A stretch of 13,967 nt of DNA, from IMG/VR virus record IMGVR_UViG_2703718846_000001; one strand, given 5' to 3'. The number at the start of each line of letters is the position of its first letter. Position 1 is the first letter of the stretch. A program made the position numbers and the translations under genes. Of the stretch, positions 1,269 to 13,967 are shown in pieces. The notes under the pieces are model-generated. The model ran no database searches. It was given only the letters and a program-made list of their open reading frames with translations, and was not told the origin of the DNA. The DNA comes from a virus (lineage: Duplodnaviria; Heunggongvirae; Uroviricota; Caudoviricetes).

Positions 1269-1405
1269 TGTTTGAGTCTTATATGGCAGAGCGTCTTCGC
1301 CGCCGCTGGGTGCGCCTGCGCTTATATCGTTTTCCTGGTTCTGTTTTGACCGATTACCGGATACTGAAGAATTACGCCAAAACCCTGACAGGAGCAGGAG
1401 TATGA
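1265..1405 (+). CDS. ylcG: YlcG-like small protein
   Basis: 46-codon [49 protein letters not shown]; ATG overlaps the rusA stop (ATGA); same position as ylcG in DLP12. Confidence 0.5.
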
Positions 1406-1490
1406 AGTCAGAGATAACAATCAACTAATACTATTTTGTTGATTTTTGCTTGTAATTGGCGTTCTGGTCTGATTTTTGTGGAGTAAGTTG

Positions 1491-1874
1491 ATGCGTGATA
1501 TTCAGATGGTTCTTGAGCGTTGGGGAGCGTGGGCGGCTAATAATCATGAAGATGTGACCTGGTCGTCCATTGCCGCCGGTTTTAAGGGATTAATTACTTC
1601 AAAAGTAAAATCTCGCCCGCAATGTTGTGACGATGACGCGATGATCATTTGCGGGTGCATGGCCCGTCTGAAAAAGAACAACAGCGATTTGCACGATTTA
1701 TTAGTAGATTATTATGTAGTCGGTATGACATTCATGTCACTGGCAGGTAAGCATTGCTGCTCTGATGGTTATATCGGGAAAAGGTTACAGAAGGCTGAGG
1801 GTATAATTGAAGGGATGTTAATGGCATTAGATATCCGGTTAGAGATGGATATCGTTGTTAATAACTCTAATTAA
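1491..1874 (+). CDS. quuD: Late-gene antiterminator Q (QuuD/phage-82/21 type)
   Basis: 127-aa product [24 protein letters not shown]... with Cys-rich segment ([18 protein letters not shown]) typical of Q-family zinc-binding antiterminators; GGAG 9-12 nt upstream of ATG 1491. Confidence 0.85.
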
Positions 1875-1960
1875 TATGCCAGTTGTTTACTAAAAGTTAT
1901 TAAAAATGGGGCGTTGCAACGCCCCCAAAAATAAAGGGTAATATATAACAGAAGGTTTAT
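1875..1960 (+). promoter_or_regulatory. Putative late promoter PR' with qut site just downstream of Q
   Basis: Position only: in lambdoid phages PR'/qut lies directly after the Q gene and before tR'. Candidate -35/-10 pairs (TTGCAA...TAATAT with 19-nt spacing) are weak and I cannot fix the hexamers with confidence. Confidence 0.3.
1907..1924 (-). terminator. Perfect 18-bp GC-rich palindrome followed by a T-rich tract on the minus strand; likely terminator of the nmpC transcript
   Basis: GGGGCGTTGCAACGCCCC at 1907-1924; on the minus strand it is followed by ATTTTTAATAACTTTT; lies ~140 nt downstream of the nmpC stop. Confidence 0.4.
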
Positions 1961-2013
1961 ATAGTTAGAAGCAAGGTTGTGCTCCTAAAGGAAGTGGCTT
2001 GAGGGAGCCACTT

Positions 2014-2053
2014 ATATGTTGGGGAGGCAAAGCCTCCCGCAACATATCTTTTT
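2014..2053 (+). terminator. Rho-independent terminator tR' for the short PR' transcript (read through when Q acts)
   Basis: ATATGTTGGGGAGGC-AAA-GCCTCCC(G)CAACATAT: 15-bp stem with one bulged G, followed by CTTTTT at 2048-2053, ~175 nt after the Q stop. Confidence 0.6.
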
Positions 2054-2063
2054 CGTAATCAGA

Positions 2064-3161
2064 TTAGAACTGGTAAACCAGACCTACAGCAACGATGTCA
2101 TCAGTGCTTACACCGAGTGCTTTAGTGAAGTCATTTTTGTCAAGCAGGTTGATTTTGTAATCAACGAAAGTAGACATATTTTTGTTGAAGTAATAGGTTG
2201 CACCTACATCAACATATTTGACTAAGTCCTGATCGCCCCATACTCCAAGATCCTTACCTTTAGATTGCAGGTAAGCAACGGACGGACGCAGACCGAAATC
2301 GAACTGATATTGTGCAACAGCTTCGAAGTTTTGAGCTTTATTAGCAACGAAGTGATCAGCAAATACAGTCATATTCTGGGTTTCAGAATAGGTAGTGGCC
2401 AGGTAAATGTTGTTAGCGTCATATTTCAGACCTGCGGCCCAAACTTCTGCATTTTTACCGGAAGCAAATACTTCAGGAAGAACTTTCCCTGCATTAACTT
2501 GAGTGTCGGTACGATCAGATTTCGCATAAGTTGCACCGATACCGAATCCTTCGTATTCATAGGTAGCAGAGAAACCGAAGCCATCACCGTTACCTTCAGT
2601 GTAGTTATCGAAATCGCTACGATCGTTTTTGCCTTGGTACTGAGCAGCAAAGTTCAGACCATCAACCAGACCAAAGAAGTCGTTGTTACGATAGGTTGCA
2701 ACACCAGTGGTACGACCAGTCATGAACACATCTGTTTGGGTCCAGGTATCGCCACCGAATTCTGGCAGAACGTCAGTCCACGCACCGATGTCGTATGCTA
2801 CACCGTAGTTACGGCCGTAATCGATTGAGCCGTAGTCACCGAATTTCAGGCCTGCAAATGCAAGACGGGTTTTGTCTTTGGAGGAACCTTGAGATTCAGC
2901 GCGGTTGCCTTTGAATTCATATTCCCACTGACCGAAACCAGTCAGCTGATCGTTGATTTGGGTTTCACCTTTGAAGCCAAGACGGGCATAAGTAGTATCA
3001 CCATCATCTGCATCATTAGAGGAGAAGTAGTGCTTAGCATTAACTTTCCCGTACAGATCCAGCTTGTTACTGTCTTTATTATAAATTTCAGCTGCCTGAG
3101 CAGACATCGCCATCAGTACTGATGCAGCTACAGCAGAAATTGCCACTGTTAATTTTTTCAT
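2064..3161 (-). CDS. nmpC: General porin NmpC/Lc (OmpC/OmpF family), intact
   Basis: 365-aa ORF; N-terminal signal peptide [23 protein letters not shown]|AEIYNK; porin-family sequence throughout; C-terminal ...VGLVYQF ending in Phe as in outer-membrane beta-barrels; no IS interruption. Confidence 0.95.
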
Positions 3162-3734
3162 CGTGAGCCCTTTTTTTTGAACTATTATTAAAAAATGATG
3201 TCACTGCGCGATAAATATTCATCTAATCAATGTGATTATTTCAAGATGTAAGTTTTGGTTTCTCGTTTGATTTGTGAAGTAGATCTCTATTTTTATCTGA
3301 ACTTTTTTCTATCGAATCCTATTTATAGCTCTTGGCTGAATAAAAATAAATCTATTAGCCAATTTATATTAACGGCTGTTATTTATAAGCGCTCTATAAT
3401 TTGAAGGTTCAATTTAAATTGGCTAAAAATAACACTGGAAATTATTTGTTGGTTATTTGTTGAGATTTGCTTATGTATTTGTAGTGGTGTTTTCAATACT
3501 CGGTAGCATTCTCGCAAATATCATTTAGTGGTTTACGTACGTAAAAAATTGGTTATGCTGTTAAGAGTGGTTACTTCGTCACACAGCTTAAACCCGCCGT
3601 CGAGCGGGTTTTTCCATTTTTTGAGTCTCGATATTAGCTGATAACCCAATACCTGAGTTATTCACTGACTCCGAGTCTGTTACGTTTCGTAGTATTCCCT
3701 CAATTTACACCCGCTTTGTCTGCGAGGTGGGGTT
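3162..3734. promoter_or_regulatory. AT-rich 573-bp intergenic region holding the nmpC promoter (minus strand) and the lead-in to the lysis cassette
   Basis: No ORF of 60 aa or more on either strand; long A/T runs; tandem repeat TTATTTGTTG x2 at 3443-3462; 10-bp inverted repeat TAGCCAATTT / AAATTGGCTA at 3356-3365 and 3416-3425. Confidence 0.4.
3590..3626 (+). terminator. Candidate rho-independent terminator ~110 nt upstream of the holin start
   Basis: AAACCCGC-CGTCGA-GCGGGTTT (8-bp stem) followed by TTCCATTTTTT. Confidence 0.35.
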
Positions 3735-3950
3735 ATGAAATCCATGGATAAGTTAACAACGGGTGTCGCCTATGGCACCTCAGCAGGTAGTGCCGGGTAC
3801 TGGTTTTTACAGCTGCTAGATAAAGTCACGCCCTCACAGTGGGCGGCAATTGGAGTGCTGGGTAGCCTGGTATTTGGCCTGCTGACGTACCTGACAAACC
3901 TTTATTTCAAGATTAAAGAAGATAAGCGTAAGGCTGCGAGAGGTGAATAA
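3735..3950 (+). CDS. essD: Phage-21-type class II holin (pinholin S21) with dual-start motif
   Basis: 71 aa, [26 protein letters not shown]...: Met1-Lys-Ser-Met4 dual start (antiholin/holin forms), two TM segments; strong SD GAGGTGGGG upstream. Confidence 0.9.
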
Positions 3951-4447
3951 TGTCGCCATCATTACGCAAGGCTGTAGCAGCTGCTATTGGTGGTGGGGCT
4001 GTTGCCATAGCGTCTGTGCTCATCACTGGTCCGAGTGGTGACGATGGTCTGGAAGGTGTCAGCTACATACCATATAAAGATATTGTTGGTGTATGGACTG
4101 TATGTCACGGGCATACAGGAAAAGACATCATGCTCGGTAAAACGTATACCAAAGCAGAATGCAAAGCACTCTTGAATAAAGACCTTGCCACTGTCGCCAG
4201 ACAAATTAACCCGTACATCAAAGTCGATATACCGGAAACAACGCGCGGCGCTCTTTACTCATTCGTTTACAACGTGGGTGCTGGCAATTTCAGAACATCG
4301 ACGCTTCTTCGCAAAATAAACCAGGGCGATATCAAAGGCGCATGTGATCAGCTACGTCGCTGGACATATGCTGGCGGTAAGCCATGGAAAGGTCTCATGA
4401 CTCGTCGTGAGATTGAGCGTGAAATCTGTTTGTGGGGTCAGCAATGA
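3950..4447 (+). CDS. rrrD: SAR endolysin (phage-21 R-type lysozyme with N-terminal signal-anchor-release domain)
   Basis: 165 aa; N-terminal Gly/Ala-rich weakly hydrophobic segment [18 protein letters not shown]; lysozyme core with [26 protein letters not shown] (E-D-T catalytic motif); start overlaps holin stop (TAATG). Confidence 0.9.
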
Positions 4448-4905
4448 ACAGAGTAACCGCGATTATCTCCGCTCTGGTTATCTGCATCATCGTCTGCCTG
4501 TCATGGGCTGTTAATCATTACCGTGATAACGCCATTACCTACAAAGCCCAGCGCGACAAAAATGTCAGAGAACTGAAGCTGGCGAACGCGGCAATTACTG
4601 ACATGCAGATGCGTCAGCGTGATGTTGCTGCGCTCGATGCAAAATACACGAAGGAGTTAGCTGATGCGAAAGCTGAAAATGATGCTCTGCGTGATGATGT
4701 TGCCGCTGGTCGTCGTCGGTTGCACATCAAAGCAGTCTGTCAGTCAGTGCGTGAAGCCACCACCGCCTCCGGCGTGGATAATGCAGCCTCCCCCCGACTG
4801 GCAGACACCGCTGAACGGGATTATTTCACCCTCAGAGAGAGGCTGATCACTATGCAAAAACAACTGGAAGGAACCCAGAAGTATATTAATGAGCAGTGCA
4901 GATAG
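4444..4905 (+). CDS. rzpD: Rz i-spanin (inner-membrane spanin subunit)
   Basis: 153 aa from ATG 4444 ([23 protein letters not shown]...): N-terminal TM anchor then coiled-coil-like periplasmic domain; start overlaps endolysin stop (ATGA). Confidence 0.9.
4664..4846 (+). CDS. rzoD: Rz1 o-spanin lipoprotein, embedded in the +1 frame of Rz
   Basis: 60 aa, [24 protein letters not shown]... with lipobox VVGC and proline-rich mature part ([16 protein letters not shown]); lies entirely inside Rz in another frame, as in lambda Rz/Rz1. Confidence 0.85.
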
Positions 4906-4936: not shown

Positions 4937-5230
4937 TTATTGTGAGCAATACACACGCGCTTCCAGCGGAGTATAAATGCCTAAAGTAATAAAACCGAGC
5001 AATCCATTTACGAATGTTTGCTGGGTTTCTGTTTTAACAACATTTTCTGCGCCGCCACAAATTTTGGCTGCATCGACAGTTTTCTTCTGCCCAATTCCAG
5101 AAACGAAGAAATGATGAGTGATGGTTTCCTTTGGTGCTACTGCTGCCGGTTTGTTTTGAACAGTAAACGTCTGTTGAGCACATCCTGTAATAAGCAGGGC
5201 CAGCGCAGTAGCGAGTAGCATTTTTTTCAT
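4937..5230 (-). CDS. borD: Bor outer-membrane lipoprotein (serum-resistance moron)
   Basis: 97 aa, MKKMLLATALALLITGCAQQ... with lipobox LITGC; matches lambda Bor closely as I recall it. Confidence 0.9.
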   Translation of the reverse strand: MKKMLLATALALLITGCAQQTFTVQNKPAAVAPKETITHHFFVSGIGQKKTVDAAKICGGAENVVKTETQQTFVNGLLGFITLGIYTPLEARVYCSQ

Positions 5231-5520: not shown

Positions 5521-5931
5521 TTAGCGTGGAAAGATTTGTGTAGTGTTCTGAATGCTCTCAGTAAATAGTAATGAATTATCAAAGGTATAGTAATATCTTT
5601 TATGTTCATGGATATTTGTAACCCATCGGAAAACTCCTGCTTTAGCAAGATTTTCCCTGTATTGCTGAAATGTGATTTCTCTTGATTTCAACCTATCATA
5701 GGACGTTTCTATAAGATGCGTGTTTCTTGAGAATTTAACATTTACAACCTTTTTAAGTCCTTTTATTAACACAGTGTTATCGTTTTCTAACACGATGTGA
5801 ATATTATCTGTGGCTAGATAGTAAATATAATGTGAGACGTTGTGACGTTTTAGTTCAGAATAAAACAATTCACAGTTTAAATCTTTTCGCACTTGATCGA
5901 ATATTTCTTTAAAAATGGCAACCTGAGCCAT
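5521..5931 (-). CDS. ybcV: YbcV (DUF1398) uncharacterised prophage protein
   Basis: 136-aa product from the ATG at 5931-5929 ([18 protein letters not shown]...), with GGAAGG 8 nt upstream. The track ORF extends to a GTG at 6054 (177 aa); the longer form cannot be excluded. Confidence 0.75.
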
Positions 5932-6216
5932 TGGTAAAACCTTCCATGTGATACGAGGGCGCGTAGTTTGCATTACCGTTTTTATCGTTTCAATCTGGTC
6001 TGACCTCTTTGTGTTTTGTTGATGATTTATGTCAAATATTAGGAATGTTTTCACTTAATAGTATTGGTTGCGTAACAAAGTGCGGTCCTGCTGGCATTCT
6101 GGAGGGAAATACAACCGACAGATGTATGTAAGGCCAACGTGCTCAAATCTTCATACAGAAAGATTTGAAGTAATATTTTAACCGCTAGATGAAGAGCAAG
6201 CGCATGGAGCGACAAA

Positions 6217-7716: not shown

Positions 7717-11400
<3,684 letters not shown>

Positions 11401-13078: not shown

Positions 13079-13099
13079 AGGCCGCCTGTGCGGCTTTTT
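13079..13099 (+). terminator. Small GC hairpin plus T7 tract in the D-E intercistronic region (attenuator/terminator-like)
   Basis: GCCGC-CTGT-GCGGC followed by TTTTTTT (13093-13099). Confidence 0.3.
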
Positions 13100-13114
13100 T
13101 TACGGGATTTTTTT

Positions 13115-13372
13115 ATGTCGATGTACACAACCGCCCAACTGCTGGCGGCAAATGAGCAGAAATTTAAGTTTGATCCGCTGTTTCTGCGTCTCTTTTTCCG
13201 TGAGAGCTATCCCTTCACCACGGAGAAAGTCTATCTCTCACAAATTCCGGGACTGGTATTGGTGCTCATACGCACTCCGTTGCGATTGGCTCACATGGAC
13301 ACACCATCACCGTTAACGCTGCTGGTAACGCGGAAAACACCGTCAAAAACATCGCATTTAACTATATTGTGA
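13115..13372 (+). pseudogene. E: Truncated major capsid gene E (first ~48 codons only, then out-of-frame readthrough into stf DNA)
   Basis: ATG 13115 gives [48 protein letters not shown] (lambda gpE N-terminus); after ~13258 the translation becomes [37 protein letters not shown] and stops at 13372. Full-length gpE is ~341 aa. Confidence 0.8.
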
Positions 13373-13383
13373 GGCTTGCATAA
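13259..13383 (+). pseudogene. stf: 3'-terminal remnant of side tail fibre gene stf (~40 codons)
   Basis: In the frame ending at TAA 13381-13383 the sequence reads [40 protein letters not shown], the His-rich C-terminus of lambda Stf as I recall it, with the stop overlapping the tfa start (TAATG). Confidence 0.65.
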
Positions 13384-13967
13384 TGGCATTCAGAATGAGT
13401 GAACAAGCACGGACCATAAAAATTTATAATCTGCTGGCCGGAACTAATGAATTTATTGGTGAAGGTGATGCATATATTCCGCCTCATACAGGTCTGCCAG
13501 CAAACAGTACCGATATTGCACCACCAGATATTCCTGCTGGCTTTGTGGCTGTTTTCAACAGTGATGAGGCATCGTGGCATCTCGTTGAAGACCATCGGGG
13601 TAAAACGGTTTATGACGTAGCGTCAGGGGACGAGTTATTTATTTCTGAACTCGGTCCGTTACCGGAAAATGTTACCTGGTTATCGCCGGAAGGGGAGTTT
13701 CAGAAGTGGAACGGCACAGCTTGGGTGAAAGATGCAGAAGCAGAAAAACTGTTCCGGATCCGAGAGGCGGAAGAAATAAAAAACAGCCTGATGCAGGTAG
13801 CCAGTGAGCATATTGCGCCACTTCAGGATGCTGTAGATCTGGAAATCGCAACGGAGGAAGAAACCTCATTGCTGGAAGCCTGGAAAAAGTATCGGGTGTT
13901 GCTGAACCGTGTTGATACATCAACTGCACCTGATATTGAGTGGCCTACGAACCCTGTCAGGGAGTAA
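13383..13967 (+). CDS. tfa: Tail fibre assembly protein Tfa
   Basis: 194 aa, [54 protein letters not shown]..., lambda Tfa-like over full length; stop at the last base of the window. Confidence 0.9.

Follow-up and report, generated by a model that had tools for sequence, protein, structure and literature searches.

A porin gene that lies between the antiterminator gene Q and the lysis genes of a lambdoid prophage, on the strand opposite to both, raises the question of how it is transcribed and whether the late transcripts of the phage have to run across it. The question is addressed here for the window, the whole stretch of 13,967 nucleotides from the Caudoviricetes virus record IMGVR_UViG_2703718846_000001, in which the porin gene occupies positions 2064 to 3161 of the minus strand. 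This segment is the lc/nmpC porin moron of a lambdoid prophage of the DLP12/PA-2 type in its intact form, and all features open to testing place it in the Lc/NmpC family. Taken as a whole, the material is best explained, with high confidence, by an intact lc/nmpC moron that forms an autonomous minus-strand unit between Q and the late promoter pR' on which Q acts.

The gene itself and the two parts of it that bear on its integrity are the following.

2064–3161, minus strand: intact NmpC/Lc porin gene, 365 codons with an ATG start in the list of open reading frames (ORFs)
3093–3161, minus strand: signal-peptide coding part, 23 residues, ending before AEIYNK
2122–2125, minus strand: unoccupied IS5 target CTAA, recognized because the alignment runs on across the K-12 IS5 site (after codon 346)

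No frameshift, stop codon or insertion sequence (IS) element was found in the ORF at 2064–3161. The signal peptide is the same as that annotated for lc of phage PA-2 in GenBank J02580, and the protein ends in ...GLVYQF, with a C-terminal Phe. CTAA has been reported as the IS5 target site in K-12 nmpC (PMC11677980); it is disrupted by IS5 both there and in the record of phage 434B, and is intact in the window. The Pfam family Porin_1 (PF00267) covers the protein over profile positions 1–337 of 337, with an E-value of 1e-156 and 522 bits against a cut-off of 23.7. NCBIfam assigns it to the 'porin OmpC' subfamily (526.5 bits, cut-off 484), and it scores under the equivalog cut-offs of PhoE and OmpF. 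End-to-end alignments with solved OmpC, OmpK36, PhoE and OmpF chains (E-values of 1e-135 to 1e-110), among which OmpC/OmpK36 chains are the top relatives (about 1e-135, residues 24–365), point to a trimeric 16-strand general-diffusion barrel of the OmpC/OmpF/PhoE family. At the protein level, 363 of 365 residues are identical to PA-2 Lc (J02580), and the same count is obtained for Escherichia coli K-12 NmpC after removal of IS5 in silico. The combination of intact ORF, family match and setting is far above chance. An earlier reading made from the sequence only had claimed an intact nmpC/Lc porin, with signal peptide, C-terminal Phe and no interruption, encoded on the other strand from Q and the lysis genes; the gene bears out the first part, and ORF coordinates and family matches agree on the second. 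A 69-amino-acid plus-strand ORF at 2016–2225, listed as 'ORF1' in J02580, was rejected as a gene: it overlaps the 3' end of the porin gene, runs antisense to a clearly real gene and is without family support.

The relation of the porin to late transcription depends on where the latter begins. The elements concerned are located after the porin gene.

3532–3574, plus strand: late promoter pR' with the initial transcribed/qut region, placed by homology to the annotated 933W pR'/qut and by a four-phage alignment
3532–3537, plus strand: -35 element of pR', TTTACG
3554–3559, plus strand: -10 element of pR', TATGCT
3562–3574, plus strand: invariant motif TAAGAGTGGTTAC, with its only exact match in the window here
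3590–3621, plus strand: conserved terminator-like hairpin, AAACCCGCCG...CGGGTTT followed by a T tract, from a terminator scan; +25 to +56 of the late transcript

The position of the pR' homologue is, like the anatomy of the segment and its sequence identities, read directly from the DNA. In a distant DNA search with the porin–holin spacer as query, window 3531–3613 proved homologous to the stretch that is annotated in 933W, VT1-Sakai and phi24B as pR', qut and terminator directly after Q, and homologues of the late promoter, the qut region and the first hairpin align to window 3531–3621. The pR' segment is 100% identical in K-12. For the Sakai prophage Sp5, the pR' start has been mapped by differential RNA sequencing to 258 nt upstream of the 3' end of tR' (PMC7547250). 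Laid off on the Sakai sequence, this distance places the start at the fifth base of the TAAGAGTGGTTAC motif, which is A3566 in the window. By homology, late transcription would thus start near A3566, about 405 bp past the porin start codon, and point away from the porin. Since the Q protein of the window is 78% identical in amino acids to 933W Q, the element at 3531–3574 is taken as the cognate promoter of this Q family. The hairpin that follows is kept in 933W, SfII and PhiR40_1 with changes only in its loop, and the 933W annotation calls it a 'possible rho-independent terminator'. In Sakai, the mapped pR' RNA, the precursor of StxS, extends over 258 nt to a terminator located past this first conserved hairpin; for the hairpin at 3590–3621, a role as terminator, as pause or in Q loading is possible in each case.

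The edges of the inserted DNA can be drawn by comparison with relatives, starting from two features.

1491–1874, plus strand: antiterminator gene Q, QuuD/933W-Q type, 127 amino acids (Pfam Phage_antitermQ PF06530, 3.5e-53)
1851–3531: cargo segment (moron), 1.7 kb, inserted between Q codon 120 and the -35 element of pR'

On the left, the Q genes of the window, 933W and PhiR40_1 cease to resemble one another beyond codon 120 (...LEMD, at about 1850), codons 1–120 being common to the relatives and the last seven codons coming from cargo DNA. On the right, homology to the pR' region of 933W, SfII and PhiR40_1 resumes at about 3531. The 189 bp after Q were found only in phage records that also hold the porin (36 of 36). 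Because a pR' homologue follows the porin, and because this 189-bp spacer travels with it, the porin is placed between Q and pR' and not in the stretch from pR' to the lysis genes. Late transcripts that depend on Q are therefore expected to begin beyond the porin and to run away from it, so that they would be divergent from the porin gene and not antisense to it. The same arrangement was seen when viral contigs were scanned for the TAAGAGTGGTTAC motif, in a sample that was not de-replicated and with counts that hold among the matches listed. A same-strand Q of this family lies upstream in 96 of the 120 motif-bearing contigs. Among these 96, Q abuts the motif in 23 (gap of 42–93 bp), a minus-strand porin lies between the two in 29 (gap of 1693–1712 bp), and other inserts of 0.6–2.5 kb are found in 44. 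The order Q, porin (minus), motif, holin holds in all 29 porin-bearing contigs.

The sequence-only reading had concluded that Q-antiterminated late transcripts must cross the porin antisense. Such a model puts pR' right behind Q, the order known from lambda, 933W or 82, and has late transcripts colliding with porin expression. The gene order on which it was built, Q, porin (minus) and holin, is correct, and pR' does abut Q in 933W and in the 23 contigs just mentioned. However, the pR'/qut homologue of the window stands after the porin and reads away from it, and the porin-bearing contigs agree with this order without exception. The DNA directly after Q, moreover, is the spacer that travels only with the porin, and it holds the terminator and 3' untranslated region (3' UTR) of the porin; a simple sigma70 scan of 1300–3800 gave no promoter-like site in 1875–2063. 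That scan returned two sites only, both within Q and fewer than expected by chance, and it misses pR' and the porin promoter, both of which have 8/12 matches or weaker. A promoter next to Q with late transcripts antisense to the porin is consequently considered highly improbable. With pR' placed by homology and by its linkage to Q, the porin and the late operon are predicted to be divergent, and there is no antisense conflict with Q-dependent transcription to explain.

Independence from the late operon would also require signals of the porin's own, and candidates for these are present on both sides of the gene.

3162–3531, minus strand: porin regulatory region, AT-rich by composition (27–33% GC)
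3244–3239 and 3220–3215, minus strand: -35 TTGAAA and -10 GAATAT of the predicted promoter PnmpC, with its start at G3209 or G3207, from our own reading of the sequence
1897–2063, minus strand: porin 3' UTR and putative IpeX small RNA (sRNA) region, about 165–167 nt, from its fold and its identity to K-12 and PA-2
1908–1925, minus strand: predicted intrinsic terminator of the porin/IpeX transcript, a GC-rich hairpin (GGGGCGTTGCAACGCCCC, then ATTTTT) found by terminator scan and fold
2014–2055, plus strand: 15-bp hairpin followed by CTTTTTCG, candidate terminator (fold of -22.7 kcal/mol, z = -5.6)

The predicted sigma70 promoter lies about 50 bp upstream of the porin ATG. It is assigned because the regulatory region is 97.9% identical to that of K-12, where the start has been mapped by 5' rapid amplification of cDNA ends (5' RACE). 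The K-12 promoter starts at a G, is activated by CRP and is repressed by OmpR, IHF and MprA (PMC11677980); CRP sites are also annotated in J02580. At the other end of the gene, K-12 and PA-2 share 96.8% identity with the window over the 189 bp after the porin stop codon, and the 3' UTR folds with a minimum free energy of -62.4 kcal/mol (z = -8.5 against shuffles). By reported length and origin, this region appears to correspond to IpeX, an sRNA that represses OmpC and OmpF (PMC12197685, PMC5069750), and its ends are estimated from that length and from the terminator. An Rfam search of the whole window (E ≤ 1) returned no family over the porin 3' UTR, the other matches being IS009 within the tfa gene and a chance microRNA match. 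With a promoter and a terminator of its own, the porin is predicted to form a self-contained minus-strand transcription unit that is independent of the phage operons.

The plus-strand hairpin at 2014–2055, which the simple terminator scan missed owing to a bulge, probably stops read-through from Q before the porin ORF is reached. Its efficiency bears on a second way in which the porin could be crossed antisense, namely by N-antiterminated early pR transcripts that, on induction, read through Q and the hairpins independently of Q. Q is transcribed toward the 3' end of the porin, this hairpin with its T tract is the only plus-strand barrier, and in established lambda biology N-modified polymerase might ignore such a hairpin. 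However, N, nut and the immunity region lie outside the window and the prophage of the window is defective, and early antisense transcription of this kind is regarded as rather improbable here, with the self-contained porin unit retained as the preferred description.

Expression of an intact copy in the lysogen, which the sequence-only reading had put forward as a possibility, finds analogies in several near-identical copies. In K-12, 5' RACE shows the promoter to be active, and it is the main source of IS5 transposase mRNA (PMC11677980). The interrupted K-12 gene is translated, and its ribosome-profiling signal falls at acid pH along with CRP-dependent genes (PMC10746267). In strain LF82, the NmpC homologue of prophage Perceval is transcribed about 10-fold over the local background in the lysogen (PMC9928086); the Q–porin spacer of Perceval is 93.7% identical to that of the window. 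Both copies of CFT073 are induced at 37 °C at the level of RNA and of protein (PMC12890032). By the alternative view, the porin is intact but silent, held off by nucleoid proteins on the AT-rich upstream DNA or by OmpR, IHF and MprA, and does not ordinarily contribute to the outer membrane. The low GC content of the upstream region and the repressors reported for K-12 PnmpC are in keeping with silence, as is the title of Prilipov et al. (1998; cited in PMC3333887), which calls the intact nmpC of E. coli B(E) 'quiescent'. Nevertheless, a promoter whose strength makes it the chief source of IS5 transposase transcripts, translation of the interrupted gene and expression of the intact homologues in LF82 and CFT073 all speak for activity. 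Silence of this kind is accordingly judged unlikely, though less so than early antisense transcription, and an expressed porin unit remains the preferred account.

According to classical work, 'protein 2' (Lc) is made in PA-2 lysogens, and OmpC, the receptor of PA-2, is lost from them. Expression, regulation and a porin swap can be proposed for the window by analogy with the published work on near-identical copies. In this proposal, the porin unit would be expressed under its own control from a repressed, here defective, prophage. The sigma70 promoter, which in K-12 responds to temperature and pH as well as to CRP (activation) and to OmpR, IHF and MprA (repression), would drive a porin mRNA that runs on into the structured 3' UTR (IpeX) and stops at its own intrinsic terminator. 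The phage porin would enter the outer membrane of the lysogen, while the IpeX part of the transcript would lower OmpC and OmpF. The host porin set may in this way be partly replaced by the phage porin, with IpeX as the mechanism of OmpC loss; because the porin and the sRNA form one transcript when the ORF is intact, the replacement would be built into the unit. Permeability would be changed, and OmpC would be removed as a receptor for OmpC-dependent phages such as PA-2, which would amount to superinfection exclusion. The cost would be sensitivity to agents that use NmpC (discussion in PMC11677980). Q, meanwhile, would act in trans at pR', with a start near 3566, and the late transcript would run rightward into the holin gene.

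The leader DNA of the porin may hold a further promoter that reads in the opposite direction.

3178–3210, plus strand: SigmaE-like promoter (TGAACTA, 16 nt, TCACT, 4 nt, G; +1 near 3210), putative, within porin leader DNA

In PMC7918800 the control region of the DLP12 lysis cassette was cloned as -121 to +650, with a citation of Rueggeberg 2015 on regulation by RpoE. The forward primer of that study starts at window 3089 and the reverse primer falls at about 3859 by fuzzy match, which gives a +1 at about 3210; the reverse primer is without an exact match in K-12 or the window, probably owing to a typographical error. A good sigmaE-type promoter thus appears to read toward the lysis genes, back to back with PnmpC, from a start beyond the porin coding region.

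Several points weigh against an autonomous porin unit that faces away from a single late promoter. The '+1' of the DLP12 lysis cassette, as reconstructed, lies near 3210 and not at 3566, which would mean that the intergenic DNA contains one or more additional promoters (sigmaE). In this lineage, pR' is assigned by homology and linkage, and the ends of IpeX are estimated from its reported length. Given the 'quiescent' intact nmpC in the title from E. coli B(E), the porin could be silent under many conditions. Finally, N-modified early pR transcripts could in principle pass the hairpin at 2014–2055 and cross the porin antisense during induction, in a prophage that has lost its capsid and tail genes.

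The scan for the pR' motif also bears on the site at which the porin resides. Among the matches listed, the gap between a QuuD/933W-type Q and the motif is a variable cargo site, and the inserts other than the porin are mostly on the minus strand. An alpha/beta hydrolase is found among them, together with the following.

Locus L101: KwaB with a membrane (transmembrane) partner (Kiwa)
Locus L027: KAP NTPase, PADLOC PDC-S20
Locus L058: HNH-like PDC-M68A
Locus L011: NYN nuclease
Loci L014 and L122: NA37 nucleoid-protein pairs

A broader proposal can be built on these occupants. The gap between Q and the displaced pR' would be a dedicated, mostly reverse-strand cargo and defence hotspot, in which porin plus IpeX is one interchangeable occupant acting through receptor-swap exclusion, and envelope stress, acting through the sigmaE promoter within the porin leader, would both promote transcription of the lysis cassette and interfere with the porin promoter. 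This proposal is tentative and, in its entirety, more doubtful than probable. The gap is in any case worth remembering when related prophages are annotated.

The genes on either side of the cargo are consistent with a lambdoid late region. The Q gene shares 99.7% DNA identity with K-12 quuD; its protein is 85% identical to PhiR40_1 Q and distantly matches the Q21 structures 6jnx and 6p18. The lysis cassette forms the first genes of the late operon.

3735–4905, plus strand: lysis cassette with S21-type holin, signal-arrest-release (SAR)-type lysozyme and Rz with embedded Rz1 (Pfam PF04971, PF00959, PF03245)
3735–3950, plus strand: holin
3950–4447, plus strand: SAR-type lysozyme
4432–4905, plus strand: Rz
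4664–4846, plus strand: Rz1, embedded in Rz

In the record of phage 434B, the homologues are annotated as antiholin/holin, SAR endolysin and spanins. Two more cargo genes lie on the minus strand 3' of the lysis cassette. The gene at 4937–5230 encodes a Bor/Iss serum-resistance lipoprotein (Pfam Lambda_Bor, 1.9e-30). The ORF at 5521–6054 is of the DUF1398 (YbcV-like) type and comprises 177 amino acids, as against a 411-bp ybcV annotated in K-12; its longer N-terminus may simply reflect an upstream GTG in the mechanically made ORF list.

Farther downstream, in the region 13088–13383, the major capsid gene E keeps its sequence as far as about codon 48 (13257) and is fused after that position to the last ~115 bp of a tail-fibre gene, and a tail-fibre assembly gene follows from 13383 (Pfam Caudo_TAP). 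The genes from E to the side tail fibre have been lost, and the prophage is therefore defective and unable to make particles. The sequence-only reading had included neither this state nor the putative RNA in the 3' UTR of the porin. The junction between E and the tail-fibre gene was absent in one piece from the complete E. coli genomes compared, where the best matches stop at 13258. In K-12 DLP12, the aaaD::tfaD junction (9660–9662 in locus L003) corresponds to window 7998 joined to 13529, so that the K-12 deletion spans the deletion of the window and extends past it, which is compatible with a stepwise decay of one ancestral prophage. The Rfam match to IS009 (RF02111) at 13726–13924 on the plus strand (227.8 bits, E-value 2e-56) lies wholly inside the tail-fibre assembly ORF; it probably reflects conserved coding sequence and not a separate RNA gene.

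The closest genome match to the window is a lambdoid prophage beside tRNA-Arg/intD, i.e., at the DLP12 site, and the window is colinear with DLP12 in the order ybcN-ninE-ybcO-rusA-ylcG-quuD-nmpC-essD-rrrD-rzpD/rzoD-borD-ybcV-ylcI-nohD. The 2.4-kb block of Q, porin and holin occurs in one piece in 2394 of the 5426 complete E. coli genomes and also in 36 phage records, in which the porin is annotated as porin, OmpD or NmpC. Two further papers, on svsR (PMC12247714) and on an enterohaemorrhagic E. coli phage (PMC12502783), were set aside as unrelated to the porin locus. As a discovery the locus carries little weight, since intact nmpC/lc copies are annotated in thousands of genomes; the gene, its regulation, its sRNA and its place in qsr'/DLP12 and PA-2 have been described since the 1980s–2000s, and expression in lysogens has likewise been published. 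What the present analysis adds is a corrected transcription map of the window and the view of the gap between Q and pR' as a variable cargo site. For the host strain, the practical meaning is that it can probably make NmpC and co-transcribe IpeX, unlike K-12, and that it may depart from K-12 in its porin set, in its uptake of antibiotics and colicins and in its sensitivity to OmpC-dependent phages.

Among known systems, the closest counterpart is lc of phage PA-2 (J02580; Blasband, Marcotte and Schnaitman 1986), whose coding region is 99.5% identical in nucleotides to the porin of the window. Orientation and neighbours are the same, with lysis genes on one side and the end of Q on the other, and the 3' UTR and the pR' segment are 96.8% and 98.8% identical, respectively. 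The two differ by two amino-acid changes (R99H and V154F), by a 16-bp indel between pR' and the holin gene, and in that PA-2 is a viable phage, whereas the prophage of the window is without the genes from E to the tail fibres. The nmpC of K-12 DLP12 (qsr') shares the locus type and gene order, with 98.2% nucleotide identity in the coding region and complete (100%) identity in pR' and the leader to essD. In contrast to the uninterrupted copy of the window, it carries IS5 after codon 346, and its late-region deletion is larger, terminase A' being joined to tfaD, whereas the window keeps A, W, B, C, D and the start of E. The phage 434B record has the same Q–porin–holin block, with IS5 after codon 346 as in K-12.

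The comparison with Shiga toxin phages is more limited. The sequence-only reading had assigned the porin to the classic toxin cargo slot, and this stands in so far as the stx genes of 933W and Sakai Sp5 are likewise flanked by a same-family Q (78% identity) and by lysis genes, and the pR'/qut element is common to both. It does not extend to transcription: the stx genes follow pR' and tR' on the late strand and are Q-dependent, whereas the porin is located before pR' on the other strand, with its own predicted promoter and terminator, and would be Q-independent; it is thus unlike Q-dependent late cargo of the stx type. The host porins OmpC, OmpF and PhoE and the OmpD of Salmonella, finally, belong to the same Pfam family and share the layout of signal peptide and C-terminal Phe. 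Compared with them, the porin of the window is a distinct prophage-borne paralogue with its own regulatory region and a 3' UTR that probably bears an sRNA.

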